From: Patescibacteria group bacterium
GTDB taxonomy: Bacteria > Patescibacteriota > UBA1384 > CAILIB01
Assembly (NCBI GenBank): GCA_041917855.1
Contig: JAYRWT010000072.1
Location: 1-42,912 of the forward strand
Direction of reading: 5' to 3'
Length of the DNA: 42,912 nt
The number at the start of each line of letters is the position of its first letter. Position 1 is the stretch's first letter. The notes under the pieces were generated by a model, which worked only from the letters and a program-made list of their open reading frames with translations, was not told where the DNA came from and ran no database searches. A program made the position numbers and the translations under genes. Positions 1,991 through 25,953 of this stretch are shown here, piece after piece.

Positions 1991-3457
1991 TCAGCAACAG
2001 AGGTCGAGCTCAAGTGATTCCTTACCATTCTGCTTAACAACGAGATGTGGGTACCCTCGTCGATAGAGCCCGGCTCCTTCCTGAAGGATGACGCCTCTAG
2101 CAATAAGTGCGCAGCTTATCAGGTGAACTCGTCCAACTGCTAGTTCTGCTTCTTTTGCCACTTGCTCAAAGTCAAGGTTAACCGACCTTTCTTCAGTGAG
2201 TTGCATCCAAGCCGCAGCAGCCACTGCATACTCCTGCTCAGAAAGTTGCAATCGCTTGAAGGCACCTTCTGAGATTTTCGGCTTTGATTGCACCAATTGA
2301 TCGGAATCAGCACTGACCACCTCTCTCTTGGTTGAGATCACCTGAACAATAATTGGCTTCCGAGCTTTTGGCTCTTGAACCTTTCTTTCTGGTGGAACCT
2401 TAAGCCGAGGTGCCTTGGGAGCACGAGTACGTCGTACTCGCATCTTTACCGATGGAGGAAGTCGAAGCTTAGCACGACCATACACCCGCACTTCTTCAAC
2501 AACCTTTGTTAATCGTTCAACAAAGGTCTTCCAGTCAATACCGTGTACCGCAACCAGGTCTTCACCGTCATCCTTATGCTTGTAAGGAAGTCGGATCGAC
2601 GTAATTGGGAGATCGGCACCCACACCTAGTGCAAGGCGGAGTCTCTTAATACCCATCGCAATGATCTGCCTAACTCGCTCTCTCGTTACACTGTAGTGAC
2701 GACCGATAGTCTCTAACGTCGCATCCGACGCAGAAAGCAAGATCATCTGACGTGTACGCACAGGTAGCTCATCAAGAGCAGTCTGCAGCTGACCAGTAGT
2801 CACATCAGGAGCATATTTTTCAAGTAGCTCACCAAAGGTGACTGGCTGTTTAGCGAGCATTTGCTCAAGGGCATCGGGAGTTGCTTCGTCAGCGATGAAA
2901 TCGCCGAGTTCACTTCCACCTTCAGAATCCAAGAGTATGTTACTCGATACCACAGGTGTGGGAGTGCAAAGCTCAGTGAGCTCTACTACAGCCTCTACAG
3001 GTAGACCAAGAAAAGTAGCCATCTCCTCAGTACTTGGAAAATGCCCTTCTTGTTGGAAGAATGCAATTTCAGCTTTCCTAATTTTTGCACCCATTTCACC
3101 CACATGGATGGGAATCCGAATAGGGTTTCGTGTGTTGGCGATATGCCGTGAAATCGCCTGGCGAATCCAGTAAGGTGCATACGTGCCAAAGCTAAACCCC
3201 TTAGTAGGATCGAAAAGCTCAATCGCCCTAAGTAGACCAATGGAGCCTTCTTGCACCAGTTCCTGACGAACCTCTTCATTCTCAGTCAAAGATTTTGAAA
3301 TCCGATGCGTCAGCGTCCAGTAAACAAGCCTCTGATTCATCTCGGCGATTTTGTTGCGCAGCGTTAGATCAGTTGGATTGGCCCAGTAAGCCTCCCACAA
3401 CCGAGCCTGCTCTACAGGGACGATAGTTTCCGTGGTTACGGGAGTTTCTTGTTCCAT
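1991..3457 (-). CDS. Sigma-70 family RNA polymerase sigma factor A with a C-terminal extension of about 200 aa
   Basis: Region 2 (GSIGLLRAIELFDPTKGFSFGTYAPYWIRQAISRHI), region 3 (IRIPIHVGEM) and the region 4 HTH (LETIGRHYSVTRERVRQIIAMGIKRLR) are present. They are followed by a K/R/P-rich linker and an extra domain not found in ordinary sigma factors. Confidence 0.9.
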   Translation of the reverse strand: MEQETPVTTETIVPVEQARLWEAYWANPTDLTLRNKIAEMNQRLVYWTLTHRISKSLTENEEVRQELVQEGSIGLLRAIELFDPTKGFSFGTYAPYWIRQAISRHIANTRNPIRIPIHVGEMGAKIRKAEIAFFQQEGHFPSTEEMATFLGLPVEAVVELTELCTPTPVVSSNILLDSEGGSELGDFIADEATPDALEQMLAKQPVTFGELLEKYAPDVTTGQLQTALDELPVRTRQMILLSASDATLETIGRHYSVTRERVRQIIAMGIKRLRLALGVGADLPITSIRLPYKHKDDGEDLVAVHGIDWKTFVERLTKVVEEVRVYGRAKLRLPPSVKMRVRRTRAPKAPRLKVPPERKVQEPKARKPIIVQVISTKREVVSADSDQLVQSKPKISEGAFKRLQLSEQEYAVAAAAWMQLTEERSVNLDFEQVAKEAELAVGRVHLISCALIARGVILQEGAGLYRRGYPHLVVKQNGKESLELDLCC

Positions 3458-3497
3458 ATTGTCGAAGTCCTGACGACACGAATTGTGCCGATAGTTC

Positions 3498-3526
3498 TAT
3501 ATAGCAGAATAGAGTAGTTGTATCAA
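3498..3526 (-). promoter_or_regulatory. Candidate sigma-70 promoter for sigma factor A
   Basis: On the minus strand: TTGATA (3526-3521), a 17-nt spacer, then TATATA (3503-3498). Confidence 0.45.
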
Positions 3527-3544
3527 CCACCAATCTTTAGAGAC

Positions 3545-3572
3545 TTGAATATTTCTTGGTTTCTGGTATAGT
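3545..3572 (+). promoter_or_regulatory. Candidate sigma-70 promoter for the helicase gene
   Basis: TTGAAT (3545-3550), a 16-nt spacer, then TATAGT (3567-3572). The 5' UTR contains the hairpin GGGTTACT-ttcg-AGTAACCC. Confidence 0.5.
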
Positions 3573-3637
3573 CCTGAAAGCAAATTGAAAAGGGTTACTT
3601 TCGAGTAACCCCACCTTGAAAACACGGAATTGAAATT

Positions 3638-6298
3638 ATGAAGATACACGGCACAACTGGCAGTCTCGCCTCCGATGGCGTACTGACTCCTAAAGAGCTC
3701 TCTGAGCTTAATGAGTCACAACTCAACGATGTCAGAGCCGTACAGGCATACTGGCAACAAAACGGATATGAAGAGCCGTATCCCCTCGTCATCAAGCCAA
3801 CTGGTTACGGGAAGGGGCGTGTCATTGACGCTCTCCTCCACCCCAACCAAGAACCTGGCGTCGCCCTGCTGATCGTCGGGACAAAGAACATTCTGGTGGA
3901 ACAGAATCAGGAAGGTCTCCGTTCTCTCGTTCTCGAGGAAACTGGAGAATCCCGATTCAGCATTCTTCCAGATACCTCTGGACCCGTCATCGTCGCCACA
4001 TGGCAATCAATTGAGGCATACTGGAAGAAATTCCACACACCTCCAGAGATTGACCTGGCGATCGTCGATGAAGCGCACAATGCAGGCACGAAAAAACGTC
4101 TGCGCGCATTGAAGTGGCTACAGCCCAAGAAAGTTGTCGGTCTAACTGCTACTGCTTACCGGGCAAGTGGTGACTTACGCGCACCTGAGCACTATGGCTT
4201 TCAGCCTATTGAAGAGATCACCGACACACTCCCCGCGTGCATTGAGCGCCGCTGGCTCTCACCGCTCATGGGTCTGTGTATAGATACGGAAATTGTCCTT
4301 CCGCGAGATGTAATGACCGGAGGCACTATCTCTGGAAAGAAACTTTACCGCGAAATGCGACACCATCCAGACCTCTTTGCGGGGATTGCTCAAGAGATTA
4401 GCACACGATTCCTACCAAGTGGCATGAAGACCATTGTGGTCGTCAACCGCGTGCTGGAGGAAGCGTGCGTTATCTACAAGCACCTCGAAAACATGGGTTT
4501 CACCGTTGGGTTAGCAGTCAACCAGAGTGCTTCGCGCATGCTGGAAAACTCATACGTCACGAATGGCAGTATCGAAAGGTACAAGCTTCCTCATGACGAC
4601 CCCAACTCAATCCAGGTTCTGATCTCACCCCAGGTGATTGGCGAGGGCTTTGATGCTCCAGCAACGGAATGTGTGGTCTGGGCATCACCTACCCACTCAA
4701 GCCTGCGTTACACACAGGTTATGGGAAGAGGTGCTCGCCGCTGTCCTGGCAAGGCATACTGCTTGGTCGTCGACTTCGTCTACATGATCGAAGGCTACGG
4801 CTACAGCATGAACTTTGCTCAGTTCTTCAAGCGGAATGAGATTAAGGAGCTTGAAGGAGGATTCATGTACGTGGGTCCAACTGACGGCTCATCGCCAACA
4901 ATAATCCCTGAAACTTTCACGAGAGGTGGAAGGGTTGTTGCTATTGCTAACCTGGATAGGCCAATAGTACGCGATGCGGGTGACTGGCTCGTAAGGGGTC
5001 AAATGGCCAAAATACTAGGAAAATCTCTTTCATGGGTTACCAGTCAACTGATTGGCCTAGCAATAGAAGGTGAGGAACGACTGGACTGCATAGGCCGACC
5101 TCAACTTCATTATCCGCCAAAGACCCTCGAGGTTTTACAAGCTGTGATTTCTTCCCTACCAGATGCGGGCGGCTGGATCCCAGCCGCCAACCTTGCATCA
5201 GAAGTAGGAAAAAGTCAGAGTTGGATCACCTCAGTACTTCGCCAACTCGGGATTACCTCTGAAAAACGGGTTTCTCCCACGCGGAGGGAATACGACTATT
5301 ATCCTCCAAATGTGGTTAAAATCCTGAAAGAAGAGGCTAACCGCTATCAGCCTGCTGGTGATTGGTTAACTGCGTTCCGTATCGCTGAAAGAGTCGGAAA
5401 GACACAGAAATGGGTCATTCCAGAACTTAAGCGTCTCGGTATTAAGCCCGAACAGCGTTGGTCTTCCAACGGTCACTTGAACAGTTATTACCCACCGACA
5501 GCAGTGGATCAGCTTGAAAAAGTTATTTCCGCTGCTCCAACCCAAGGTAAGTACATCACAATCCAGAAGGCAAGCGACACCCTGGGTGTAGCAAAGCAAA
5601 GGGTTAAAAAGATCCTGGATGAACTTAAGATAAAAGGGGAAGATCGATGGGTTCAAGGACAGTTGAGGAAGCATTTCTCACCACAAGAGATTGCACAGGT
5701 GAAGGCAGCGCTGGATAGCTACCCTCTCCAAGGAAACTTCCTAACACTGGTCGAACTCGCTCGAGAAGTAGGAAAGAGCACATGCTGGTGTGAGCGAAAT
5801 CTCAAGCCACTTGGGGTAAAAACTGAAGAAAGATGGACGGATAACGGATTCAAAACCTGCTATCCACCTTCGACAGTCACATCACTTAAAGAACTCTCCA
5901 CATCAGTTCCCGAGTCAGGTGACTGGCTAACTGCGGACGAGATAAGTGTGGCAATTGGCGTCAGTCCAAGATGGGTTCAACCTCGTCTTCCCGCAGAACT
6001 CGCCGAGAAGCGACTCTCAAAGAAGAAGGGTGTCTTTACTCACTACCCACCGGAAACAATTCAGATGCTGAAGTCTGAACTAGAAAGTATTCCGGCAGCC
6101 GGTGATTGGAAAACAATCAGCGGCATGGCAACTGAACTGGGCGTTGCTCATAACTGGGTTACGGCCAGGCTCGGGTCGTACCAAGATCATTGCCAGGTTC
6201 GAAGAGCAGATGACAATCGGATGTTTAATCACTACCCGCCACATGTGCTTGAGGATCTCCGTCGCCAATGGAACGAATACAAAAAGTCCCGCAAATAG
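3638..6298 (+). CDS. SF2 (DEAH / type III restriction Res-like) helicase fused to seven tandem HTH-like repeats
   Basis: Motif I is KPTGYGKGR (GKG instead of GKT/S). Motif II is IVDEAHNAG, motif III is GLTATAY and motif VI is QVMGRGARR. The C-terminal 440 aa are repeats (see the repeat feature). Confidence 0.9.
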   Translation: MKIHGTTGSLASDGVLTPKELSELNESQLNDVRAVQAYWQQNGYEEPYPLVIKPTGYGKGRVIDALLHPNQEPGVALLIVGTKNILVEQNQEGLRSLVLEETGESRFSILPDTSGPVIVATWQSIEAYWKKFHTPPEIDLAIVDEAHNAGTKKRLRALKWLQPKKVVGLTATAYRASGDLRAPEHYGFQPIEEITDTLPACIERRWLSPLMGLCIDTEIVLPRDVMTGGTISGKKLYREMRHHPDLFAGIAQEISTRFLPSGMKTIVVVNRVLEEACVIYKHLENMGFTVGLAVNQSASRMLENSYVTNGSIERYKLPHDDPNSIQVLISPQVIGEGFDAPATECVVWASPTHSSLRYTQVMGRGARRCPGKAYCLVVDFVYMIEGYGYSMNFAQFFKRNEIKELEGGFMYVGPTDGSSPTIIPETFTRGGRVVAIANLDRPIVRDAGDWLVRGQMAKILGKSLSWVTSQLIGLAIEGEERLDCIGRPQLHYPPKTLEVLQAVISSLPDAGGWIPAANLASEVGKSQSWITSVLRQLGITSEKRVSPTRREYDYYPPNVVKILKEEANRYQPAGDWLTAFRIAERVGKTQKWVIPELKRLGIKPEQRWSSNGHLNSYYPPTAVDQLEKVISAAPTQGKYITIQKASDTLGVAKQRVKKILDELKIKGEDRWVQGQLRKHFSPQEIAQVKAALDSYPLQGNFLTLVELAREVGKSTCWCERNLKPLGVKTEERWTDNGFKTCYPPSTVTSLKELSTSVPESGDWLTADEISVAIGVSPRWVQPRLPAELAEKRLSKKKGVFTHYPPETIQMLKSELESIPAAGDWKTISGMATELGVAHNWVTARLGSYQDHCQVRRADDNRMFNHYPPHVLEDLRRQWNEYKKSRK
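4973..6295 (+). repeat. Seven tandem protein-level repeats of about 62 aa (about 186-192 nt) inside the helicase ORF
   Basis: Units start near 4973, 5162, 5354, 5540, 5726, 5912 and 6095. Consensus: aGDWlt..eiA..vGks..WV...L..LGi..E.R.......YYPP..v..Lk.....P. The units are diverged at DNA level. Confidence 0.85.
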
Positions 6299-6319: not shown

Positions 6320-6347
6320 AGCCCCGGCAGTCCCGGGGCTCTTTTTG
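6320..6347 (+). terminator. Rho-independent terminator after the helicase gene
   Basis: AGCCCCGG pairs with CCGGGGCT around a CAGTC loop, followed by CTTTTTGTT. Confidence 0.8.
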
Positions 6348-6389
6348 TTATTCATACTTTAGTAATCTTTTGGTTATGCTAAGCTATTG

Positions 6390-6545: not shown

Positions 6546-7163
6546 ATGCTTACTTTAATTATCGGGATTCTCTGGACTCTCTTGATCGTTGGACTTATTA
6601 GCCCAAGCTTCTTTAGTAAGATGTTTAAGGGAGAATATACCCGCAAGAAGATTGTCCTTATCTTAGTTCCCGCAATGGTTGTAATAGGAATTATCGGAGC
6701 TGCCCTTAGTCCAAAGGAAACAACAACAGACCAAGTAACGCAAACTTCCACAACGCCAACTCCAACCTCCACACCGGTTAACGTGCTTTTTGATCTATCT
6801 AACGCAAAAGGTAAAACACCTGAAGAAATCGTAGCAGCATTGGGTGAGCCAACGAAAAAATTTGAACCCAACAACACGCAGAAAGAACTAGCACAAAGTG
6901 GACAATTTAAGTATGACGTTGACTATGAATGGCACAAAGAAGACCAAATTCTCTATATGAGTTTTGACTATACAACGAAGGTTGTTAGAGATTTCTTTCT
7001 TGATTGCAGAGGTGATGGTTACGAAGGTAGCTGTAAGAATACTGAGCAAGTAATCAATCGCCTTAAAGCTCAATTGAACGCAGATACCAGCGGTATGAGA
7101 GTAGAAGCTGTCAGGGTCCTCAAAGACCCCACTAGTATTACTGGTATTAAGCTGATTCCGTAG
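6546..7163 (+). CDS. Membrane-anchored secreted protein, unknown function
   Basis: The ATG at 6546 lies downstream of the leader terminator, whereas the track start at 6510 lies inside the terminator hairpin. It has two N-terminal hydrophobic segments, a T/P-rich linker and a globular C-terminal domain. Confidence 0.7.
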   Translation: MLTLIIGILWTLLIVGLISPSFFSKMFKGEYTRKKIVLILVPAMVVIGIIGAALSPKETTTDQVTQTSTTPTPTSTPVNVLFDLSNAKGKTPEEIVAALGEPTKKFEPNNTQKELAQSGQFKYDVDYEWHKEDQILYMSFDYTTKVVRDFFLDCRGDGYEGSCKNTEQVINRLKAQLNADTSGMRVEAVRVLKDPTSITGIKLIP

Positions 7164-7701
7164 GTTCCTTAATTCCTAAAAGCTGACTCAACAACCGGCC
7201 ATTTTGCTCCAGCTGCTCTTTCACCTCAGCTTTAGCCTCAATATCGCGGAGGAACAGCTGATCCTTCGGTCGCATGAGGTTCATATCCATGCGCTCTAGA
7301 ATGAACTTAGCGGCGGCAAGATCCCCTGCCGCAACAGCCGAAGCCAGTAGCCCATAAGAAGCTGCAACAAGACTGTCTTTCTCCGCTGTTACCTCCACAC
7401 CAACACGCTCGGGCGGCAACTTATACTCCCCATCCCGCCGCGACAGGTGGTAGCGAATCGCCCACGACTCCCCTTGGTCAATCTTCTGCAGCAGACGAGA
7501 ACGCGCCAAATCGTTCACTTCTTGGGTGCCGAGCATATGTGCCTCATCTGCCGCTTCCTTAAATGTCGGGTCGTCCTTGTACCAGCGGTAGTACTGGGCT
7601 TTGGACAGACCCGCCCGCTTGCATGCCGCACTCACAATCCCGTGCTTCGAGAGCTCCTCAAGCAGCGCTTTGGTCACCGATTTGCGCTGCCGCTGGTTCA
7701 T
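7147..7701 (-). CDS. Terminase small subunit-like HTH protein A
   Basis: N-terminal HTH (GIVSAACKRAGLSKAQYYRWYKDDPTFKEA) of the type seen in phage TerS / phBC6A51-type HTH proteins. Its start overlaps the upstream stop (ATGA). Paralog of 28502-28945. Confidence 0.6.
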   Translation of the reverse strand: MNQRQRKSVTKALLEELSKHGIVSAACKRAGLSKAQYYRWYKDDPTFKEAADEAHMLGTQEVNDLARSRLLQKIDQGESWAIRYHLSRRDGEYKLPPERVGVEVTAEKDSLVAASYGLLASAVAAGDLAAAKFILERMDMNLMRPKDQLFLRDIEAKAEVKEQLEQNGRLLSQLLGIKEPTESA

Positions 7702-9026
7702 GGCAGCAGCACCGCTTTCTCACCCGTCAGCTTTTCCCACCTCGCTCGGATGACCTCGGCATAAACCGGCGACTTTTCCATGATGCAGCAGCGGCGCTTC
7801 ATCTTGGTAGCTGCCATGAGGGTAGAGCCCGAACCGCCAAACGGCTCGAGGATTAAGTCTCCCCGCTTCGTTAGCACCTTGATGTACGGGATGAGAATCT
7901 CCAAGGGCTTCGTGCCGAAGATTACCCCCTGCCCCGAGCTTTTCTCATCGCTTGCGCGGTATTCAATGAAGTCGGTGGGACAAAGACCTGAACCTTTGAC
8001 GTAGTTTTCCCAGTGCGGCTTGCCGGTGATGGCAAAGAGGGCGGTTTCATACTCTTGTTGTAGCCCGTCTTCTTCCGGCTCATGGTTGTACTCAATATCT
8101 TCGGTCTTGCTAGCACCTACCATGGCAATGTCGTGTTTAGAGAAGAACTTGCGCTTGGCCGAGAAGCCTTGGTGGCGGTTCTCAATGTGCCAGACGATCA
8201 TGTTCTTCACCTTCCAGTACTTCTCCATCTCTCCCCAGATGACGCGGAGGTTCTTCCAGTTCTCATAAACGATGATGGAGAAGTGCTCTTTGGCAGCAGC
8301 ATGCACGTTCGCCATCCAGAGCTCGGTGAAGTTGTCTGGGAGGGAATCAGTTTCGAGGTAGCGGCGATTCTTCTTGGCGCCAAACCCCTCTACCCGACTC
8401 TCCCCTTTATTCACCTTGCCGTGCAGGTAGTCCAAGATATACGGTGGGTCGGTCAGGCACATGTCCGCCTTTTCGCCCTGCATGAGCTTTTCCATGTCGG
8501 CTGGCACGGTTGAGTCACCTACCAGAAGTCGGCTTTCGCCAAACGCCCAGAGCTGCCCTTTCTGCATTTCTTGCTCTTGAATGCCCAGCTTTTCTAACTC
8601 TTTCTTGAGGTCAAACTGCTCGACGTTGTGCTCAAAATCAAAGATGAGATCGAGCTCGGAAGACTTAAAGCCGATGTCAGCCAGAAAGGTTTCGTCAAAA
8701 GAGGCTAATTTTTGGTAGTCGAACTCGCCCAGGTTCTTGTTGAGCCGAATATTGAGCTCTTTCTCCTTTTCCTCAGTGAGCGAGACGAAGACGACCGGGA
8801 CTTCGGTGAAGCCAAGCTCCTTGGCGATTTCCAGGCGGAAGTGCCCGCCGATGACGATATTCTCCCGCTCAGGGTTCTTGTTGACGATGAGCGGATCGAC
8901 CATACCGAACCGCTGGATGGATTCGGTTAGTTTTTTCTTTTCTTCCTCACCCCATTTGCGCGGGTTGTATACAGCGGGGTTGAGGGTTTCGACGGGAACG
9001 TGGGTAATTTTAAGTTCAGGTTTCAT
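7698..9026 (-). CDS. ParB-like N-terminal domain fused to a beta-class N6-adenine/N4-cytosine DNA methyltransferase (A)
   Basis: YNPRKW and GGHFRL ParB/Srx-type motifs. DPPY motif IV (CLTDPPYILDY) precedes the C-terminal SAM motif I (FGGSGSTLMAA). Confidence 0.9.
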   Translation of the reverse strand: MKPELKITHVPVETLNPAVYNPRKWGEEEKKKLTESIQRFGMVDPLIVNKNPERENIVIGGHFRLEIAKELGFTEVPVVFVSLTEEKEKELNIRLNKNLGEFDYQKLASFDETFLADIGFKSSELDLIFDFEHNVEQFDLKKELEKLGIQEQEMQKGQLWAFGESRLLVGDSTVPADMEKLMQGEKADMCLTDPPYILDYLHGKVNKGESRVEGFGAKKNRRYLETDSLPDNFTELWMANVHAAAKEHFSIIVYENWKNLRVIWGEMEKYWKVKNMIVWHIENRHQGFSAKRKFFSKHDIAMVGASKTEDIEYNHEPEEDGLQQEYETALFAITGKPHWENYVKGSGLCPTDFIEYRASDEKSSGQGVIFGTKPLEILIPYIKVLTKRGDLILEPFGGSGSTLMAATKMKRRCCIMEKSPVYAEVIRARWEKLTGEKAVLLP

Positions 9027-10506: not shown

Positions 10507-11075
10507 AAAATAAAATCTTTCTGCATACTTTTTACTAAAAAACTTTTACGGAAAAGGCCAACTACTACGTAGTAAATTAGTCCAGATAAAAAGCATACGT
10601 AGGCTAATACTTCCCATAATATGGGATAAGACCATTTTGGGGCCGAAATAATTCCTAAAGAGGGAAATATCGAAGCAAAAAGTGCACAAATCAACCCAAC
10701 TACACACATTCCCCAAAGAATCATTTCTGAGTATTTCCACAAGATTCGGTGCCTAATCTTCCATTTCTTGTCTGAAAGCTGATAGGCAGCAAACAAAAGA
10801 CCAACTGCTGCCAGCGCGCCACCTAAATCAAAGTAAACAGTAGGGTTCTGAGGATTATAAATACAACCACGAACAAAACTATAGGTAGAGAAAAAGCATG
10901 TCTGCCATGGGGTATTTACCGCTCCAGGAAATATTTCTGTAATGCTTTGCATTACTTTAAGAATAGCAATGCTACATAGGAATGATAGTCCATCCCACTG
11001 TCTCATTTGTCTCAGTATCAGAGTAGCTCGAAGGTTCCACAACATACCGCAACCCCCGTGATTCATCTCTGGCAC
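10467..11075 (-). CDS. Hypothetical multi-pass membrane protein (202 aa) in the AT-rich cassette
   Basis: Several hydrophobic helices. The GTG at 11075 lies 7 nt after GGAGG. Confidence 0.6.
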   Translation of the reverse strand: MPEMNHGGCGMLWNLRATLILRQMRQWDGLSFLCSIAILKVMQSITEIFPGAVNTPWQTCFFSTYSFVRGCIYNPQNPTVYFDLGGALAAVGLLFAAYQLSDKKWKIRHRILWKYSEMILWGMCVVGLICALFASIFPSLGIISAPKWSYPILWEVLAYVCFLSGLIYYVVVGLFRKSFLVKSMQKDFILCFFLSFQILTQK

Positions 11076-11096
11076 AGAATCCCCTCCAGAGTTCCC

Positions 11097-11156
11097 AGAC
11101 CGTCAAGCTCTATCGCATAGGAACAGCATCGAACCTCCCTGCTTACTCTGAAGAAC
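11097..11156. repeat. Intergenic repeat copy c1 (tRNA-fragment-like)
   Basis: AGACCGTCAAGCTCTAT...CATCGAACCT...CTTACTCTGAAG aligns along about 60 nt with copy c2. It contains a T-loop-like GGTTCGAT on the minus strand. Confidence 0.7.
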
Positions 11157-11292
11157 CTTTAGATAATACTGATAAGGTAGGTTCCACATTCACTCCGTTT
11201 TACCTAAAAGGCTTTACCAATATTACGCACAGCACAATGGGTAAAGGATACTTAAAACCGTCTTTCCCTATGCCACATGTGTTAACAGGGCG

Positions 11293-11327
11293 TTGACAAA
11301 CCAGGTTAAAACATGTATGTTTTAACC
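11293..11327 (+). promoter_or_regulatory. Near-consensus promoter overlapped by a 24-nt palindrome
   Basis: TTGACA (11293-11298), a 17-nt spacer, then TATGTT (11316-11321). The palindrome GGTTAAAACAT-gt-ATGTTTTAACC spans 11304-11327. It points toward the 3' end of the NYN gene and a bidirectional terminator-like hairpin at about 11338-11378. Confidence 0.4.
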
Positions 11328-11385
11328 ATCACCACGAAAAGGGATCCGAACGGTTAATTGCCTAAGGAGCCCTTTTCTTTTTGTA

Positions 11386-11925
11386 TTAGCGACGTATTTT
11401 CTTTTGAACCTCAGCCGCGTCTAAGGCATCAAAATATTCTGAGCCCAGTTTTTTATACAATGATGAAGCTTTGCGTTTTTCCGGGAAGAGAACTTTCGCC
11501 AACTTCTTCTGCTCAATAAGAAAATCAACGAGAAGCTTATAATCGCCATCACCAGAAACCAGTACGATCCCATCAAACTTCTCCCTCAGATACAGCCGTT
11601 TCATGACATGGAAAATAATGTCGGAATCGACATTCCCCTTTTTCTTGCCAATCATGGTTGAACTATGCTCACGAAACATGAGCACAAATCCTGCACGTTG
11701 AATCTGCTCGTACAAATCTTGGTATTCCTCATGCACTACGCCCAAAAAGTAGTACGCTGTTTCTACGTGGTACTTGTCATTAAGGTATGTCCGAAACCGA
11801 GCGAGGTCTAATTTCCAAGCATCTTTTTCACGCTTAGCAGTACCCATGTGCAGGTTCTGCCCGTCGATGAACGCAAGGTTTGATACGCTTGGTTTTTGCT
11901 TATTCATATGGTTTGAATGTACCAC
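11386..11925 (-). CDS. NYN (LabA/DUF88-like) domain protein
   Basis: FIDGQNLHMG near the N-terminus, NVDSDIIFHV, and VLVSGDGDYKLLVDFL, which are typical NYN/LabA acidic motifs. Confidence 0.8.
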   Translation of the reverse strand: MVHSNHMNKQKPSVSNLAFIDGQNLHMGTAKREKDAWKLDLARFRTYLNDKYHVETAYYFLGVVHEEYQDLYEQIQRAGFVLMFREHSSTMIGKKKGNVDSDIIFHVMKRLYLREKFDGIVLVSGDGDYKLLVDFLIEQKKLAKVLFPEKRKASSLYKKLGSEYFDALDAAEVQKKIRR

Positions 11926-12018
11926 TTTCGCGGTTTCTACGCCAGGTTCGGAGGTAAACCGTAAGACTTAGAAAACAGAGCAAGTATCTAAAGAAGCGCC
12001 AAATCACCAAAACCAATC

Positions 12019-12078
12019 AAGACCGTCACGCTCTATTTATGAAGAATGGTATCGAACCTTCTCCTTTACTCTGAAACA
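12019..12078. repeat. Intergenic repeat copy c2 (tRNA-fragment-like)
   Basis: AAGACCGTCACGCTCTAT...GGTATCGAACCTTCTCCTTTACTCTGAAAC. It shares the 17-nt core with c3 and about 60 nt with c1. Confidence 0.7.
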
Positions 12079-12202
12079 ATCGCCATATATTCCTCCAGAC
12101 GGGTTCTAGTTATATTCCGTGCACTATTGAATTCAAGTAAAAAGTCAGGAGTTATCGAGTCGATTATTGCTTCTCAAGCCGTACTCCCCCATTCGGAATT
12201 CC

Positions 12203-12211
12203 TGCTAGAAT
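12203..12211 (+). promoter_or_regulatory. Extended -10 element giving a probable leaderless CYTH mRNA
   Basis: TGCTAGAAT ends 6 nt before the ATG at 12218, and there is no Shine-Dalgarno sequence. Confidence 0.4.
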
Positions 12212-12217
12212 ACCTGT

Positions 12218-12817
12218 ATGCAAATAGAAATCGAGGCCAAGTTTACCGATATCAATCCCGCTGACCTACGGGAAAAACTCAATAGCGTAGGCGCAAGCCT
12301 TGTCCATGAAGAGCGTCTCATGCGTCGTAAGAATTACGACTACCCAGACCATAGCTTAGAGGCAAAAGGTGGATGGATTCGCGTACGAGACGAAGGTGAT
12401 CAGGTGACGCTTGCTTACAAACAACTTAATGACCGGACTCTCCACGGCACTCAGGAAGTGTCGCTTGTCGTGGAAGATTTTGACCGCATGGGACTATTTC
12501 TTACATCGGTAGGGTTCGAACTTACCGCCTATCAAGAAACCAAGCGCGAGAAGTGGATGCTCCATGATGTTGAAATAACCATCGACACCTGGCCATGGAT
12601 CCCTTCATTTTGCGAACTAGAGGGGCCAAGTGAAGATAAGGTAAAAGCTGTAGCGGCTACTTTAGGCTTTGTGTGGCAAAATGCCATGCATGGGAGCGTA
12701 GAGAACGTCTACGTCATGCACTATGCTGTAACTGAACTTGAGGTATGCAGCTGGCCAAAGATTACTTTTGATCCCGTGCCTACTGAAGTTGAGGCAAAGC
12801 GAATTACCCGATCTTAG
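12218..12817 (+). CDS. CYTH-domain protein (class IV adenylate cyclase / triphosphate tunnel metalloenzyme family)
   Basis: N-terminal EIEAKF (ExExK) signature and overall CyaB/CYTH-like length and pattern. Confidence 0.8.
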   Translation: MQIEIEAKFTDINPADLREKLNSVGASLVHEERLMRRKNYDYPDHSLEAKGGWIRVRDEGDQVTLAYKQLNDRTLHGTQEVSLVVEDFDRMGLFLTSVGFELTAYQETKREKWMLHDVEITIDTWPWIPSFCELEGPSEDKVKAVAATLGFVWQNAMHGSVENVYVMHYAVTELEVCSWPKITFDPVPTEVEAKRITRS

Positions 12818-12900
12818 CTCATATAAGGTTCTATCCGATACTTTAAGGCTTGGAATACGCTTTATATATCTATGGAAGCCCCAAACCCGTCAATTCAGTC

Positions 12901-12917
12901 AAGACCGTCACGCTCTA
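12901..12917. repeat. Intergenic repeat copy c3 (17-nt core only)
   Basis: AAGACCGTCACGCTCTA is identical to the c2 core. On the minus strand the flank reads like a degenerate tRNA 5' half (GCGGAAC..GGTAGAGCGTGACGGTCTTGA). Confidence 0.65.
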
Positions 12918-12968
12918 CCAAATTGCAATTAGTTCCGCATTCCCATTTGCTATCAGGGAAAACGAGAG

Positions 12969-13903: not shown

Positions 13904-16039
13904 TTAAATCGCCGCTAAGCTGCGCTCAGACCGTTTCAGAAGCACGGCATTGGTCGCCACGATAATCGATGAGACGCTCATCAGCAGGGCCGCAACCTCA
14001 GGCCTGAGCATGACGCCGAAGTTCGGGTACAGGAGGCCCGCGGCGATAGGGATAGCCAGCAAATTATAAATGGAGGCCCAGAAGAGGTTCTGCTTCATCT
14101 TGGCAACTGTCGCTTTTGACAGCACGATGGCCCGCAGGATGTCCTTTGGATCGGATTTCATCAGTACCACCTTGGCCGTCTCGATGGCCACGTCAGTTCC
14201 CGCTCCGATGGCGATGCCAATATTGGCCTGGGCCAAGGCCGGGGCATCGTTTACCCCGTCGCCCACCATGGCCACGAACTTACCCTCGTCCTGCAGCTTC
14301 TTCACGTAGCTCGCCTTATCGGCAGGCATTACCTCTGCAAATACACGCTTAATCCCCAGTTCCTTAGCTACCCGATCTGCTGTCTTCTGGTTGTCGCCGG
14401 TAATCATGGCCGTCTCAATACCCAGCTCGTGCAGCTTGGCGATAGCCTCCTTTGCTGACGGCTTTATGGGGTCGGACGCCCCCACTACTCCGGCAGCGTT
14501 CCCCTCAACCGCGAGGATCATCAGCGTCTCACCCTTTCCAAGCAGCTCATTGATACTGCTTTCCAGCTCCGAGATCTCCACACCGTTTTCTTTCATGAGA
14601 CGGGTAGTGCCGATAAGGACGGATCGGCCGTCCACTACCGCCTTCACGCCTAGCCCCGAGAGATTCTCAAAGTTTTCAACACTCTCGTAGAGGTCCAAGC
14701 GCCGCCGCTCTACTTCTTCCAGCACCGCTTTACTCAGTGGATGCCCCGACTTGGCCTCGGCGCCTCCCACCAGCCTCAAAAGTTCGTTGTCCGTGGTCTT
14801 GCCAACCGAGAATACGCTCGTGACCTTGGGCTTGCCTTCGGTCAGCGTCCCGGTTTTGTCGAGCACCACGGCCTGGACTTTTGAAACTTGCTCAAGGGTT
14901 GGCGCGTCTTTAATTAAGATGTTGTGCTTGGCTCCGATTCCCGTCCCAACTGCCACAGCAGTCGGGGTTGCCAACCCCAAGGCATCCGGACAGGCGATGA
15001 CCACGGTAGCAATGGCAAAGGTAAGCGCGGTCATTACCTCCGCTCCTGAGAAATACCAGATGAGGAAGGTAAGGAGTCCGCCTCCTACCGCCACGATCAC
15101 TAGGTATTTTGCCCATTGGTCGGCCAGTTTCTGTCCCGGCGCTTTGGAATTCTGGGCGGTTTCCACCATCTTCACGATCTGGGCGAGCGCCGTGTCTTCC
15201 CCGACCTTGGTCGCCTTGAATGTGACCGAACCGGTCTGGTTGATCGATCCTCCGGTTACCGAATCACCTGGTTTCTTAGCAACGGGCACAGACTCGCCGG
15301 TTACCAACGACTCATCAATCGAGGTCTCGCCTTCAATGATTTCTCCGTCCACCGGCACCTTATCTCCAGGCTTGAGGATTACGTGATCGCCAAGCAGTAC
15401 CTCGGCGGTAGGAACCATGATTTCTTTGCCGTCCCTATGCACCCTGGCCTGAGGCGGCACCAAGGAAAAGAGTGCCTGTAGGGCGTCGGTAGTTCCCCGG
15501 CGCGACTTCATCTCCATCCAGTGGCCAAAGAGCACGAAGGTAGTCAGCATGGCCGCCGCCTCGTAGTAGGACTCCTCGCTTCCCAAAAGCGTCAGCACGA
15601 TGCTGAAGAAGTACGCCGCCGAGATTCCTACCGCAATCAGCACCGACATGTTGAGGTTCTTTTCCTTGAGCGCGAAATAGCTCGAATACAGGAAAAGCCA
15701 GCCGGCATAGAAGAACACCGGGGTAGCGAGTAAAAAGAGGAGCCAGGGCACCGGAATGGGACTTGGCAGCTGCAGGCCCAGGAGCATCGAGCCCATAGGC
15801 GAGTACAAAACGATTGGAACGGTCAGGATAAGCGAGAAAAAGAACTTGCGGCGAATATCCTCTTCCATCATTTTGGCCATTTCTCTCCCCGCCAAACCGG
15901 TATGGTCCATCCCCATGGTCATGGTCATGCTCGCCTTGAACCTGCCCCACCAACCGGTGGGAGTCTCCATATGGTGATGGTGCCCCGAATGGGAAGGCTC
16001 TACCTCATGATGATGCTGGCTGTGATCGTGGTGCTCCAT
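13904..16039 (-). CDS. copB: P1B-type heavy-metal ATPase, CopB-like, with a His-rich N-terminus and a CPD transmembrane motif
   Basis: The N-terminus is MEHHDHSQHHHEVEPSHSGHHHH. DKTGTLT, GDGVNDAPAL and TGES are present. The TM6 motif reads ACPDALGLATP (codons at 14984-14992). GGAGGA precedes the ATG. Confidence 0.9.
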   Translation of the reverse strand: MEHHDHSQHHHEVEPSHSGHHHHMETPTGWWGRFKASMTMTMGMDHTGLAGREMAKMMEEDIRRKFFFSLILTVPIVLYSPMGSMLLGLQLPSPIPVPWLLFLLATPVFFYAGWLFLYSSYFALKEKNLNMSVLIAVGISAAYFFSIVLTLLGSEESYYEAAAMLTTFVLFGHWMEMKSRRGTTDALQALFSLVPPQARVHRDGKEIMVPTAEVLLGDHVILKPGDKVPVDGEIIEGETSIDESLVTGESVPVAKKPGDSVTGGSINQTGSVTFKATKVGEDTALAQIVKMVETAQNSKAPGQKLADQWAKYLVIVAVGGGLLTFLIWYFSGAEVMTALTFAIATVVIACPDALGLATPTAVAVGTGIGAKHNILIKDAPTLEQVSKVQAVVLDKTGTLTEGKPKVTSVFSVGKTTDNELLRLVGGAEAKSGHPLSKAVLEEVERRRLDLYESVENFENLSGLGVKAVVDGRSVLIGTTRLMKENGVEISELESSINELLGKGETLMILAVEGNAAGVVGASDPIKPSAKEAIAKLHELGIETAMITGDNQKTADRVAKELGIKRVFAEVMPADKASYVKKLQDEGKFVAMVGDGVNDAPALAQANIGIAIGAGTDVAIETAKVVLMKSDPKDILRAIVLSKATVAKMKQNLFWASIYNLLAIPIAAGLLYPNFGVMLRPEVAALLMSVSSIIVATNAVLLKRSERSLAAI

Positions 16040-16047
16040 TCATCCTC

Positions 16048-16425
16048 CTAGTAACCCCACTGGTTCTGCCATTCGCGCATCTGGGAGATTTCCTTCTGCT
16101 GAGCAGAAATAATGTCGTCAGCCATCTTCTTGATCTCGTCGTGCTTGGCGTTCTTCTGGGCTTCCTTGGCCATCTCGACCGCACCCTGGTGGTGCTCGAT
16201 CATGGAGGAGAGGAAGGACTTGTCGAATTCATCACCAGACTTGCCCTTGAGCGTACCCATCATGTCGCCCATGCTCATGTCCATATGGCTGCCAGCGTTG
16301 CCACCGTTTTCATGCATCCCCATCATTCCCATCATGCCGTTATGGTTGAGTGAGGTCACGGCCAGGGTCAGGATGACGCCAGCCAGTAAGCCGATGATTC
16401 CGTAGAGTGCAGATTCCTTGTTCAT
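16048..16425 (-). CDS. DUF305-family protein with an N-terminal TM helix and a Met/His-rich segment
   Basis: The C-terminal IEHHQGAVEMAK...DIISAQQKEI pattern is DUF305-like. The segment MMGMMGMHENGGNAGSHMDMSMGDMMG suggests Cu(I) binding. Confidence 0.75.
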   Translation of the reverse strand: MNKESALYGIIGLLAGVILTLAVTSLNHNGMMGMMGMHENGGNAGSHMDMSMGDMMGTLKGKSGDEFDKSFLSSMIEHHQGAVEMAKEAQKNAKHDEIKKMADDIISAQQKEISQMREWQNQWGY

Positions 16426-16492
16426 GGTAATTTTTATTAGTTGTAATGCTAGTTCCAGTATACGCCGTTGGCCTGAAGCTGCTCCAGTGGCC

Positions 16493-17176
16493 CTACTTCG
16501 CCAGTTCCGCCTCGATAGCGTCGCGCAGCCCCTGGGTATACTTCACCTGCTTCCCGTTCACATAGAATGACGGTGTTCCTGTCACTCCCAAGGCCTCACC
16601 GTCGGCCAAATCACGGGAGAAGGTGTCGTTGTACCGGTTCTCATCGATTGCTTTTCGAACCTCATCCGCATTAATGCCCAACTCGCGGGCATATCCCACA
16701 ATGATATCTTCAGCCTGCTGCTTGGTTTTAGGGGTTGGCCCATCGGCACTCCACTGCTCCTGGTTCTCGAACAGCTTGTGGTGCATCTCCCAGAACTTGC
16801 CCTGCTTGCCGGCCTCTTCGGCGGCATTGTGCGCAATCTGGGCGTTCTTGTGGCTTGGAAGCGGGAAATTGCGGAAGACGAACTTCACGCTTTTGTCCTT
16901 ATACTCCTCCTCGATTTGTGTCACCTGGCCAAAGGCGAACTTGCAGGCCGGACACTGGTAATCGGCAAATTCAACTACCGTCACCTTGGCGTCTTTCGGC
17001 CCCAGGAAGTAACTGTCATCTCGCACTAACTGCCCGGCGTCGGCAAGGTCGGTAGCCGCTGAAGCCGGTCCGCTCGGATTGCTCTTTTCTGACTTAGCGG
17101 CGAACATAACCGCTCCGCCGATGAGAAGGACACAAAGTGCCCCGACTATACTTACTATCTTAACTTCGTTTGTCAT
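16493..17176 (-). CDS. DsbA/BdbD-type thiol:disulfide oxidoreductase (membrane-anchored)
   Basis: Thioredoxin-fold CPAC active site (YQCPACKF) and an N-terminal anchor. Confidence 0.85.
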   Translation of the reverse strand: MTNEVKIVSIVGALCVLLIGGAVMFAAKSEKSNPSGPASAATDLADAGQLVRDDSYFLGPKDAKVTVVEFADYQCPACKFAFGQVTQIEEEYKDKSVKFVFRNFPLPSHKNAQIAHNAAEEAGKQGKFWEMHHKLFENQEQWSADGPTPKTKQQAEDIIVGYARELGINADEVRKAIDENRYNDTFSRDLADGEALGVTGTPSFYVNGKQVKYTQGLRDAIEAELAK

Positions 17177-17615
17177 ATGGTTTGTTTAGGTAAATTGATA
17201 AGCCCATGGCGACTGTAATGAAGACGAAGGCCACGAGCGAGAGGAATGGAATGCTGATAAAGCCGAGCCACTCAATATATTTGGTCGTGCAGGACACCCC
17301 GAGGCTGCAGGGCGAGAGGGATTCAGTAATTACGCCCCAGGTCAGCAGGTTCTGGTACAGGGCAATGCCGGTACCGACAACTCCGAGTGGCAGAACATAG
17401 TACGGAAGGCGCTGGTCCCTCAGGATAATTCCTACCGCCATAATGAAGACGATCGGGTACATGAAGATCCGCTGCCACCAGCAGAGCGTACAGGGCGGGA
17501 AGTGCAAGATCTCGCTGAAATAAAGGCTCCCCAGCATCGAGGCGATGGCCGTAGCCCAGGAAAGGTACAGCAGCACCTTGATGACTAGCGCTTTGTTCTT
17601 CAGAATCCACTCCAC
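17160..17615 (-). CDS. DsbB/BdbC-type disulfide bond formation protein
   Basis: CTLCWWQR motif in the first loop, four TM helices and a second Cys pair (SPCSLGVSC). Confidence 0.85.
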   Translation of the reverse strand: MEWILKNKALVIKVLLYLSWATAIASMLGSLYFSEILHFPPCTLCWWQRIFMYPIVFIMAVGIILRDQRLPYYVLPLGVVGTGIALYQNLLTWGVITESLSPCSLGVSCTTKYIEWLGFISIPFLSLVAFVFITVAMGLSIYLNKPYDKRS

Positions 17616-17833
17616 TACGCCTCCTCTGGAAGATGGACGGTGTATTCCCCCAGCTCTTCGACCTCTTTCTTGAACGTCTGCCAGTCAACCGACCCGTCGT
17701 GTTCTATGAGGGTATTTCCACTCTCAAAGTCGACGGTGATCGATTGGATACCATGTTGCTCGCCTCCTACTTCTTCGATAAGCATCTTGCAGGCCTTGCA
17801 GTGGGTTCCTTGGATATGCAGTTCAGTTTTCAT
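17615..17833 (-). CDS. copZ: Heavy-metal-associated (HMA) copper chaperone, CopZ-like
   Basis: A 72-aa ferredoxin-like HMA domain with a GTHCKAC metal-binding loop. Confidence 0.8.
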   Translation of the reverse strand: MKTELHIQGTHCKACKMLIEEVGGEQHGIQSITVDFESGNTLIEHDGSVDWQTFKKEVEELGEYTVHLPEEA

Positions 17834-17843
17834 GGGTAATAAG

Positions 17844-19679: not shown

Positions 19680-19745
19680 AAAAATTACGCTTAATGAAAT
19701 TAGCAAAAGGAGCCTCTTACCAAAGAGGTCTCAGTCTGTAATTCC

Positions 19746-20186
19746 TTAAGCGTAGAGCAGCGGCTGAGCCTTGCCGGCCGCTAAGAAGAGAGCGAAGTAG
19801 TCGTGAAGGTTATCGTCAGGCGGATCCTTGCTTCCGTGAACGAAGCGAACATACAGCAGCGACTTGATATCAAACGGTGCGAAGATGAGCGTCGCAACCA
19901 AGATAGCGGCAAATAGTGCCAACATTCCCAGGATCGAACTGCTGCCTGGGATTCCGGTAAATGTACTCTGCCACCAGGCCAGATGCTCCCCTACTTGCAT
20001 TGGACAGATCCGAGGCGCTCCGCCGTGGGCCTCGTGGCTTGCGGTAGATGCCATCGAGCAGGCCACTTCGACATTGGCCATTCCTCCCATGTCCAGGCTG
20101 ACCAGGCCAACCAGCAGGAAAGCTGCCGCCGTGAATGCGGCAAGCGACCTTACGAACTTAAGTTTACTGGCAATGCGGTTAAACAT
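19746..20186 (-). CDS. Hypothetical membrane protein with a Cys/His/Met-rich loop
   Basis: Two TM segments flank ACSMASTASHEAHGGAPRICPMQ. It lies within the copper cluster. Confidence 0.6.
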   Translation of the reverse strand: MFNRIASKLKFVRSLAAFTAAAFLLVGLVSLDMGGMANVEVACSMASTASHEAHGGAPRICPMQVGEHLAWWQSTFTGIPGSSSILGMLALFAAILVATLIFAPFDIKSLLYVRFVHGSKDPPDDNLHDYFALFLAAGKAQPLLYA

Positions 20187-20224
20187 GGAAAGTATTTTGT
20201 TGGCCCTATTATACCACCTTTTGC

Positions 20225-20443
20225 CTAGGCCTGCTTCTTTTCCGTATCCGAGTGGCAGTCTTCGTGACCGTTTTTATTCATGAAAACCATTCCTATGAGC
20301 ATCGAGACCGGACAGATGGCTAGCACCGCAAAGGGAGCGAGAGCCACGATGCCGCTCCGCACCCCTGGGAATAGAAGGTAGCCGAGGGCAAGCGCAAGGC
20401 CTGCCCCGATAGCTACTTTGATCATGGTTTTTGGACTGCACAT
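20225..20443 (-). CDS. Small membrane protein, DUF2933-like
   Basis: A 72-aa protein with two TM helices, an internal CP motif and a His/Cys tail (GHEDCHSD), as recalled for DUF2933 proteins in metal-resistance loci. Confidence 0.55.
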   Translation of the reverse strand: MCSPKTMIKVAIGAGLALALGYLLFPGVRSGIVALAPFAVLAICPVSMLIGMVFMNKNGHEDCHSDTEKKQA

Positions 20444-20453
20444 ATACCCTCCT

Positions 20454-23400: not shown

Positions 23401-24026
23401 GCAAAGTTAACGTTGGCCTGAGAAACCCCTGGCACCTTTTTCAGACCACGCTCAATGAGCGTGGCACAGGAAGAGCAGTGCATTCCAGATAATGAGAGTG
23501 CAACTTTACGGCGAGGATTCTTTTCTTCCGAATCGTTATCTTCGTGGGTGACCACATGGCCTGCGCCCTCTTCTTTTTGGGGCGCACCGAGTGAGCGCTC
23601 AATAGCCGTAGGAACACTAAGCAGCTGTACTAGCCGATCCAATACCCCTTTAGCGGAAGACGGCTGAATATCCAGACTCTTCTCGTTCTTTATTTCCCCA
23701 TCAAAATAGGGGTTTCCTCCCGCGTCGGTTCGGACAACCCCCTTTGCTTCAATGGTAGATTCAAGCCGGATCGACACCTGCTCGGCAGGTTCTTCGGTAT
23801 GTTGCTCAACGGACTGCACCTTGGCCGTGTAGCCGGTATCCTTGATGGCGGCCAAAACTTCTTTTTCCGAGGTGAGGTCTGAGTTTACGCTGACGGTTCC
23901 CGATCCTCCGGGAACGTCGACAGTAACTTCCCCTACTCCGGGAAGCTCGGAGAGGCTGCGCTTGATGAGCTTCTCGCAGGAGGAGCAGTGCATGCCTTCG
24001 ATTGATAATGTAAGGGTCTGGGTCAT
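20454..24026 (-). CDS. copA: Copper-translocating P1B-1 ATPase CopA with two N-terminal HMA domains and a C-terminal extension of about 270 aa
   Basis: GMHCSSCE occurs twice. [17 protein letters not shown] and [10 protein letters not shown] are present. After the last canonical TM there is an extra TM and a duplicated soluble module (20457-21269). Confidence 0.93.
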
Positions 24027-25737: not shown

Positions 25738-25920
25738 ATGGCTTTGCTTACTTCTAGCTATACCAATCAATGCCCTGAAGGACTTACTAAGTCCAGGCAA
25801 ATTCCAGGTTGGAACCGCCTTTTGTGACCCTACAACTCGATCGCTTAGTACCTCCACCCCGCCCTAACAGCCAATACAATAGGAAGGGTGCAATTAAAGC
25901 TCCTACAGGTTAAAAAGATT

Positions 25921-25948
25921 TTGATATGGGTCACATATCTGCTACGAT
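25921..25948 (+). promoter_or_regulatory. Candidate promoter of leader RNA copy 2
   Basis: TTGATA (25921-25926), a 16-nt spacer, then TACGAT (25943-25948). The predicted start near 25955 coincides with the first base of the outer stem. Confidence 0.4.
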
Positions 25949-25953
25949 ACAAG

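Follow-up and report, generated by a model that had tools for sequence, protein, structure and literature searches.

A Patescibacteria superfamily II helicase ending in seven tandem winged-helix units, and the proteins that share the unit

What might a helicase do with seven tandem helix-turn-helix (HTH)-like units at its C-terminus? The question is raised by an open reading frame (ORF) on contig JAYRWT010000072.1 of a Patescibacteria group bacterium (assembly GCA_041917855.1), of which positions 1 to 42,912 were analysed as one stretch, here called the window. The ORF encodes a superfamily II (SF2) helicase or translocase motor followed by a head-to-tail array of seven units. A first-pass annotation of the DNA had suggested that the array recognizes an iterated site such as an origin, a pac-like site or the iterons of an element. 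Our analysis assigns the units to the MerR/Xis/BldC class of winged-helix domains and finds them on many other proteins. It leads us to favour, with somewhat better than even confidence, a lineage-specific chromosomal DNA translocase that a covalent, fast-evolving array of a portable winged-helix module would anchor to duplex DNA.

Seven winged-helix units behind one motor

The ORF is divided as follows, where HMM stands for profile hidden Markov model, i-E for independent E-value, AF2 for AlphaFold 2 and pLDDT for predicted local distance difference test:

3638..6298, forward strand: complete ORF of 886 amino acids (aa), an SF2 helicase/translocase followed by seven winged-helix repeats
3638..4972, forward strand: SF2 motor, aa 1-445, matched by Pfam ResIII/Helicase_C and PHROG 16
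4973..5161, forward strand: winged-helix unit 1, aa 446-508; independent HMM i-E 6e-24, AF2 array model with pLDDT >90
5162..5353, forward strand: winged-helix unit 2, aa 509-572; independent HMM i-E 1e-23, AF2 array model
5354..5539, forward strand: winged-helix unit 3, aa 573-634; i-E 2e-25, single-unit AF2 model and Foldseek
5540..5725, forward strand: winged-helix unit 4, aa 635-696; independent HMM i-E 3e-13, AF2 array model
5726..5911, forward strand: winged-helix unit 5, aa 697-758; independent HMM i-E 6e-19, AF2 array model
5912..6094, forward strand: winged-helix unit 6, aa 759-819; independent HMM i-E 3e-22, AF2 array model
6095..6295, forward strand: winged-helix unit 7, aa 820-886; independent HMM i-E 4e-24, AF2 array model

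The units are 61–67 aa long and all in frame. Their starts at 4973, 5162, 5354, 5540, 5726, 5912 and 6095, as placed in the first-pass annotation, correspond to aa 446, 509, 573, 635, 697, 759 and 820. Pairwise identity among the units is 18–39% in protein and 33–51% (mean 42%) in nucleotide sequence, and Tandem Repeats Finder (TRF) reported no repeat in the DNA of the ORF. When a profile HMM was trained solely on units from other proteins, with those of the window excluded, it recovered all seven (i-E 3e-13 to 2e-25) and totalled 433.8 bits; the highest score over 200 shuffles of the C-terminal region was 5.0 bits. On this difference, the seven-unit repeat is real and far above chance. The consensus of 626 family units reads G-D-W-L-T, A..LGKs..WV..RL, E.R and HYPP..v..L, and so bears out the shared pattern described from the window alone. 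Unit 4 is the most diverged, with GKY for GDW, HFSP for HYPP and a net charge of +5. A six-frame HMM scan of the window found the repeat in no ORF other than 3638..6298.

The AF2 model of the seven-unit array (aa 436-886, from a 71-sequence alignment) has a mean pLDDT of 93.4 and a predicted template modelling score (pTM) of 0.63, with the linkers also above 90; the model of unit 3 alone, from a 116-unit alignment, has a pLDDT of 88.8 and a pTM of 0.71. DSSP assigned the same order of elements to all seven units and to the single unit: strand, helix, turn, helix, beta-hairpin wing, helix. These elements comprise a short strand (W-L-T), an 8-residue helix, a turn (LGKS), a 10-residue helix (..WV..RL), a beta-hairpin wing (E.R ... 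HYPP) and a 12-residue helix that leads into the next unit through a conserved Y-P-P-A-G-D-W junction. In unit 7 the last helix is prolonged up to the C-terminus (residues 433-450 of the array model).

When the single unit was compared with the PDB by Foldseek, the top matches were almost all winged-helix double-stranded DNA (dsDNA) binders of MerR/Xis type, at probabilities of 0.9–1.0. Template modelling (TM) scores to RacA, BldC, Xis, Par and MerR-family domains were 0.5–0.76, with root mean square deviations (rmsd) of 2.1–4.4 Å. Among them were pSK1 Par on centromere DNA (TM 0.76, rmsd 2.1 Å), Pukovnik Xis (TM 0.68), RacA–DNA (probability 1.0, TM 0.63) and BldC–DNA (probability 0.9–0.97, TM 0.5–0.66). 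Further matches were RdfS, the DNA-binding domains of Mu transposase and Mu repressor, lambda gpNu1 and TraN, and, from the MerR-family regulators, HiNmlR, CarH, GlnR, SoxR, CueR and CvkR. In the BFVD viral library, some actinophage “HTH DNA binding” proteins aligned across two consecutive units.

Sequence libraries gave the unit no name. Pfam returned only sub-threshold KorB, HTH_ParB and HTH_23 signals on the whole array, and its MerR and HTH_17 models did not reach threshold there. Searched unit by unit (116 units), Pfam gave 7 matches to HTH_23, 6 to KorB and 3 to HTH_17 at E<0.1, all at E 2e-4 or weaker and none past threshold. NCBIfam held no match to the unit, and profile searches of PDB sequences gave no significant match, with marginal ones only, to the HTH part of various regulators. 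Both parts of the first-pass description, HTH-like units that belong to no named domain, are thereby upheld, the former by the structure prediction that it had proposed as a check. The fold is thus known, and the sequence family and its covalent multi-unit arrangement are undescribed in the libraries searched. We found no description of such a helicase in the literature, including that on Saccharibacteria, WhiB and sigma factors.

The closest parallel for the arrangement is BldC of Streptomyces, a 68-residue MerR-like protein consisting of a winged-helix domain only (PDB 6amk, 6ama), which forms head-to-tail multimers on DNA direct repeats and so builds extended protein–DNA filaments; each protomer reads a consensus AATTXXXX(C), and a 36-mer holds four protomers (PMC5859096). 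BldC has the fold class of the unit, and its filament is a non-covalent counterpart of the covalent head-to-tail array. It differs in having one domain per molecule and in assembling cooperatively; here a single chain joins up to nine units and may be fused to a motor. BldC is also absent from the PDB profile matches, with no significant sequence-profile similarity, and the present unit has its own signature of GDW, W21 and HYPP together with a conserved proline-rich linker.

RacA and Xis have been named as architectural relatives of BldC (PMC5859096). In our comparison, RacA, the Xis proteins (lambda, Pukovnik, RdfS), pSK1 Par, lambda gpNu1 and the Mu repressor and transposase domains give the best structural matches to the unit. 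All are architectural or site-organizing dsDNA binders with the MerR/Xis fold, several of which act on arrays of sites, but they stand alone or have other partners. To our knowledge, none of them occurs as a covalent array of five to nine units or as a helicase fusion. MerR regulators share the N-terminal winged-helix topology. They carry a long dimerizing coiled-coil helix and usually an effector domain, and bind palindromes as dimers (PMC5859096), whereas in the AF2 models the units have neither coiled coil nor effector domain and each is joined directly to the next. Some resemblance to the array itself is seen in actinophage proteins whose MerR-like HTH domains stand two or three in tandem: the “HTH DNA binding protein” of Rhodococcus phage ChewyVIII aligns over two units (126 aa, TM 0.60 on the target), and PHROG 323 matches aa 581-735 at E 4e-7 with the whole protein and 2e-8 with the array alone. 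These phage proteins have far fewer units, no motor and marginal sequence similarity.

Several properties of the array point indirectly to DNA as its ligand. Its isoelectric point (pI) is 9.3 and its net charge +12; the pI of the motor is 6.2. The conserved residues outside the core are basic across the 626 units and are placed where the fold contacts DNA: K/R at position 17, before the recognition helix (69%), R at position 25, within it (60%), R at position 36 in the wing strand (78%) and K/R at position 42 in the wing (54%). The array probably binds duplex DNA, and helix 2 and the wing would make the contacts. Positions 19, 20 and 23, which are exposed on the recognition helix, rank among the most variable, and since the units of one protein differ there, the array is not expected to read identical iterated sites.

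The motor and the turnover of its C-terminal module

The SF2 motifs I, II, III and VI that had been read from the window were all located, motif I in an atypical form, and are kept among orthologues. Motif I is PTGYGKG (aa 54-60, window 3797-3817), whose lysine is invariant in 11 orthologues and is followed in the helicase family by G or S instead of the usual T/S, the window protein having GKG. Motif II, DEAH (aa 144-147, window 4067-4078), motif III, TAT (aa 170-172, window 4145-4153), and motif VI, QVMGRGARR (aa 360-368, window 4715-4741), are conserved in the same number of orthologues. Pfam ResIII scored above its cut-off (37.2 vs. 22.5 bits) and Helicase_C just below (22.1 vs. 23.5), and PHROG 16, “DNA helicase”, matched the motor at E 3e-35. 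Among solved structures, the nearest in sequence are 7clg (deposited as “Putative helicase”, E 6e-13), RadD, Hef, XPB/Rad25 and type I HsdR; RadD was matched at E 2e-17 in NCBIfam and 3e-12 in PDB entry 6jde, and XPB at 2e-4.

The motor shares its motifs with RadD, XPB (Rad25, SSL2), Hef and PHROG 16, all ResIII-type SF2 DNA motors. Identity with RadD itself was considered and rejected, because the window protein scores 62.6 bits with the RadD equivalog model NF053632, far under the cut-off of 720. Features of its own are a conserved N-terminal G.TG....DGVL motif and the GKG/GKS Walker A sequence. Phage and plasmid helicases resemble the motor at 25–29% identity and have no repeat region. Relatives carry the source annotation “superfamily II DNA or RNA helicase”, and their current labels are “DEAD/DEAH box helicase family protein” or “hypothetical protein” only. 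PADLOC-DB 2.0 gave partial motor matches (~60–260 residues) to the models for a Type IV methyl-directed restriction enzyme and PbeA, with no full-length match to a defence component and no partner genes nearby, and in a Pfam scan the window protein showed neither a nuclease nor another effector domain.

A search with the motor alone returned 51 relatives, nearly all with C-terminal extensions. Motor identity across orthologues steps down through 80, 78, 66, 63 and 55%; array identity is 28–39% already in the closest pairs, which is the level found between units of one protein. Matrices of unit-against-unit scores between the window protein and eleven orthologues show no diagonal, even at 55–78% motor identity, and for this reason we dropped the idea of a unit position with its own conserved specificity. 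Helicase fusions carry 2–7 units, the maximum being reached in the window protein and in P0005. In P0168 (53% motor identity) the place of the array is taken by three units of PF18780, HNH_repeat (E 4e-30), and 25 more distant orthologues (34–45% identity; P0178-P0203) have 2–4 copies of a different repeat of ~80 aa with the consensus ..DF.lt..sL...F.G...kl......L.ee.Pelfv.R.sG..iV.VvTDR..FIeeM...Ga.LK. The latter was tried as a relative of the winged-helix unit and set aside as unrelated, since hhalign gave a probability of only 1%.

Because the arrays diverge fast and are replaced by unrelated repeats, the stable trait of the helicase family, as read from these sequences, is a motor with some C-terminal tandem-repeat module, the module itself being labile. 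The first-pass annotation had called the array old and maintained. The divergence of the units agrees with the first half of that description; the second does not hold, as the array turns over fast between relatives and its units are not individually conserved.

Distribution, gene neighbourhood and the search for a target site

An exhaustive profile search with the unit (E <=1e-3, proteins clustered at 50% identity) found it in 969 protein clusters, 137 of them at <=1e-30, with 2–9 copies per protein at a modal spacing of 63 aa. Homologues with other repeat numbers, for which the first pass had proposed to look, are therefore plentiful. Word-indexed searches were insensitive: the array as query returned 2 relatives, and a single-unit profile none. 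Among the top 150 clusters, 11 have the same ~445-aa motor. The largest class (60 of these 150) has a common N-terminal region that matches sigma-70 regions 2 and 4 in its longer members, and another class of repeat proteins ends in a WhiB domain (E 1e-19). Abstracts on WhiB-like proteins describe them as restricted to Actinobacteria and their phages, and as binding sigma region 4.

Several of these proteins are encoded close to rpoD or another sigma gene. Members of the large class lie directly after dnaG-rpoD, and repeat-only proteins of ~436 aa with five units lie immediately 3′ of dnaG-rpoD at loci L010/L011 (6001-7311). A fusion of four units with WhiB (L005, 4301-5626) is found two genes past rpoD and ahead of a second WhiB gene, and a sigma-like fusion adjoins a sigma gene of extracytoplasmic function (ECF) type. 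The named helicase relatives come from “Candidatus Saccharimonadales bacterium” and “Patescibacteria group bacterium”, and the single genome match is a metagenome-assembled genome (MAG) of an uncultured Candidatus Saccharibacteria.

In the window, the helicase gene is flanked by the following features:

1991..3457, reverse strand: sigma-70-family gene, divergent from the helicase gene, 488 aa with Pfam regions 2, 3 and 4
3545..3572, forward strand: sigma-70-type promoter-like site of the helicase gene, TTGAAT, a 16-nt spacer and a TG-extended TATAGT, by consensus match only
3591..3612, no strand: perfect 8-bp inverted repeat GGGTTACT TTCG AGTAACCC, from sequence reading and a hairpin scan
6320..6350, forward strand: intrinsic-terminator-like hairpin, an 8-bp stem with 7 G-C pairs, then the T-run CTTTTTGTTA

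The sigma protein is extended at its C-terminus by ~210 aa, which run from a stretch rich in lysine, arginine and proline to a small HTH-like end and in which the six-frame HMM scan detected no copy of the repeat. The divergent sigma–helicase pair occurs in three genomes: that of the window, L003 and L021/L022. In L003, the Saccharibacteria MAG, the helicase is 55% and the sigma protein (3901-5352) 47% identical to those of the window, and the flanking genes are uvrA and rnhB; in L021/L022 the helicase core is 78% identical, and the sigma gene of L021 lies at 3382-4842. A functional tie between the two proteins may be inferred from this conserved divergent pairing. TTGAAT and TA.AAT elements are kept upstream of the L003 and L021 orthologues. 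The inverted repeat, ~25 nt ahead of the start codon in the leader of the helicase gene, is conserved in neither, and the strong terminator-like hairpin stands directly past the helicase stop codon. Elsewhere, one orthologue adjoins prfA, rplA, rplJ and rplL, another is placed among metabolic genes, and the HNH_repeat variant P0168 (L023, 4181-6133) lies inside an rpsL-rpsG-fusA-tuf cluster. The neighbourhoods of orthologues, including those with 78–80% core identity, are of housekeeping character and free of recombinase or terminase genes.

The suggested recognition of an origin, pac-like site or iterons led us to the DNA itself. The window holds no iterated DNA motif of at least three copies with a suitable period, as judged by TRF at low threshold and by direct- and inverted-repeat searches, so the search that the first pass had advised came back negative. 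The three sigma–helicase intergenic regions have promoter-like elements in common upstream and no repeats. A tblastn search with the array found no match among 50,697 phage and 72,556 plasmid records. A degenerate two-unit DNA pattern run against IMG/VR gave 8 chance matches, 0 of which encode the repeat, at an estimated sensitivity of ~15% per protein. In view of the missing iterated site, the housekeeping neighbourhoods and the lack of phage or plasmid matches to the array, the iterated-site proposal is unsupported in that form. An extended, non-identical DNA target may instead be read, and is compatible with the computed results.

Several other features of the window were recorded. A mosaic of mobile-element genes covers 583-1890, 7147-9026, 13904-24026 and 24451-31061. 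It includes two large serine recombinases (583-1890, 24451-25857), a large terminase (26920-28497), a module of a small-terminase-like HTH_Tnp_1_2 gene and a ParB_N-N6/N4 methylase gene that occurs twice (7147-9026, 28502-31061), and, between these elements, a heavy-metal cassette with two P-type ATPases and HMA/cupredoxin/DsbD_2 and DsbA-like genes. At 11040-12960 there are three intergenic direct-repeat copies of ~75–130 nt with the core AGACCGTCA[A/C]GCTCTA, spaced by ~900 nt, which bracket an NYN-domain gene (11386-11925, reverse strand) and a CYTH-domain gene (12218-12817, forward strand) in a cassette-like layout; Rfam found no RNA family in the window, these repeats included. A Peptidase_S24 (LexA-like) gene (31843-32484) precedes a pair resembling a cyclic-oligonucleotide-based antiphage signalling system (CBASS), in which a SMODS/nucleotidyltransferase gene (32481-33407, sub-threshold for SMODS) overlaps a gene for the Cap15 cyclic-dinucleotide receptor (33404-34033, E 4e-22). 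At 35260-36276 lies a second gene of the sigma-70 family, and directly behind it a DndB-like gene (36278-37285; sub-threshold, 26.5 vs. 29.1 bits). The helicase–sigma pair looks like core chromosome that happens to adjoin the mobile and defence genes of the window.

Possible roles of the array and its motor

In the reading that we favour, the gene product would be a chromosomal SF2 translocase or helicase of a Patescibacteria lineage (Saccharimonadales-type bacteria) whose C-terminus forms a covalent, probably rigid array of seven winged HTH domains. The array would lie along duplex DNA, with the starts of the recognition helices and the wings touching the backbone. On the model of BldC, whose head-to-tail protomers bind ~9 bp each, a seven-unit array may cover ~60 bp, with or without sequence specificity. 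So placed, it would tether the motor or set its position, and the motor, driven by ATP, may translocate on, unwind or remodel adjacent DNA. Because the module also occurs on sigma-like regions and on WhiB and is encoded near rpoD, the helicase may have its place at promoters or transcribed DNA, or close to them, perhaps together with the divergently encoded sigma factor. A bolder version, to which we give very little credence, makes the array a modular reader of extended DNA in the manner of zinc-finger or transcription activator-like effector (TALE) arrays. Each unit would read a few bp through its hypervariable positions and the array would deliver an XPB-like translocase, sigma-like domains or WhiB to promoters in Saccharimonadales-type bacteria, so that helicase and sigma factor would open or remodel promoters in an ATP-driven manner as a bacterial counterpart of TFIIH-XPB.

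Several observations weigh against the anchored-translocase reading. ATPase activity is uncertain because motif I of the window protein is without the usual Ser/Thr after the lysine (GKG). The Foldseek E-values are weak (>=0.04), as the domain is short (63 residues), and the fold assignment is drawn from the probabilities, the TM-scores and the consistency of the match list. For the whole array the best Foldseek matches are the tandem winged helices of UFL1 and of the SelB C-terminus, at TM ~0.1, and winged helices also act as protein–protein or RNA-binding modules. Units 1 and 6 have a net charge of −1, and no target sequence of the array was found. The sigma pairing is absent in 3 of the 6 neighbourhoods examined (L008, L009 and L023), and the sigma-like and WhiB fusions may belong to other lineages.

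Some of these points suggest ligands other than DNA. Tandem winged helices serve as scaffolds in UFL1, cullins, ESCRT-II and TFIIE, TFIIF and Pol III subunits, and the array could likewise bind no nucleic acid at all and be the part by which the motor docks on RNA polymerase, on a sigma factor or on some other complex. The whole-array matches (UFL1, TFIIH and Pol III subunits), the co-occurrence of the module with sigma-like domains, with WhiB (in the abstracts a binder of sigma region 4) and with rpoD neighbourhoods, and the hypervariable exposed helix positions all fit such a scaffold. We nonetheless think it unlikely: those matches reach a TM of ~0.1 only, whereas TM is 0.5–0.76 between the single unit and MerR/Xis-type domains bound to DNA, the basic conserved residues of a basic array sit at the DNA-contact places of the fold, and one orthologue exchanges the array for HNH_repeat, which is named after its association with homing endonucleases. 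An RNA helicase or ribonucleoprotein remodeller, for instance in ribosome biogenesis, with an array that binds structured RNA, is the least probable reading in our estimate. Orthologues are embedded in clusters of ribosomal-protein and translation-factor genes, SelB, whose four C-terminal winged helices bind the selenocysteine insertion sequence (SECIS) RNA, is among the array matches, and the annotations allow for “DNA or RNA”. The relatives of the motor, however, namely RadD, Hef, XPB and HsdR, are DNA enzymes (7clg being deposited simply as “Putative helicase”). Its motifs are DEAH, TAT and QxxGRxxR, not those of a DEAD-box protein, with no Q-motif-type match, and the close structural matches of the unit are dsDNA binders.

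Two further explanations keep DNA as the ligand. Were the array to recognize an iterated site (origin, pac-like or iterons) of a mobile element, the helicase would be the replication or packaging motor of that element; the window is rich in mobile-element genes (two large serine recombinases, a large terminase and two modules of a small-terminase-like HTH and a ParB-methylase), the motor resembles PHROG 16 and phage and plasmid helicases (25–29% identity), and the structural relatives Xis, gpNu1 and pSK1 Par bind iterated sites. The window nevertheless yielded no such site to TRF and repeat searches, orthologues live in housekeeping contexts free of recombinase and terminase genes, the array has no phage or plasmid match and the IMG/VR pattern only chance ones, and the units are unlike each other at the exposed recognition positions, all of which makes this explanation very improbable to us. 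A role in defence or conflict, in which a conserved motor would be steered by a diversifying DNA-recognition array that tracks changing foreign or host targets, we hold to be distinctly improbable. It would account for arrays that are ~30% identical at 80% motor identity, vary from 2 to 7 units with no positional orthology and are exchanged for unrelated repeats, and the window holds methylases and the CBASS-like pair besides the partial PADLOC matches of the motor (Type IV methyl-directed restriction enzyme, PbeA). Those matches, though, span generic helicase motifs only, the protein has no nuclease or effector domain, the gene sits in housekeeping clusters with a sigma-70-type promoter-like site, and fast divergence is equally expected if backbone contacts alone are constrained.

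We therefore return to a chromosomal translocase that its array would hold on duplex DNA as the reading to carry forward. What the family adds is a large unnamed module in which a fold usual as a monomer, a dimer or a non-covalent filament (MerR, Xis, BldC, RacA) has been made into a covalent array, and which is joined to a conserved SF2 motor, to sigma-like proteins and to WhiB, all of them central to DNA transactions. The Patescibacteria in which it appears, above all Saccharibacteria, have tiny genomes, and little work known to us deals with how they transcribe and handle their DNA. Should the predicted DNA binding hold, the array would offer a simple test system for head-to-tail winged-helix filaments that read or coat DNA. 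In these bacteria the proteins that carry it would then be candidate members of a new class of factors associated with the nucleoid or with promoters, and the helicase would exemplify a conserved motor whose targeting domain evolves fast and can be swapped.

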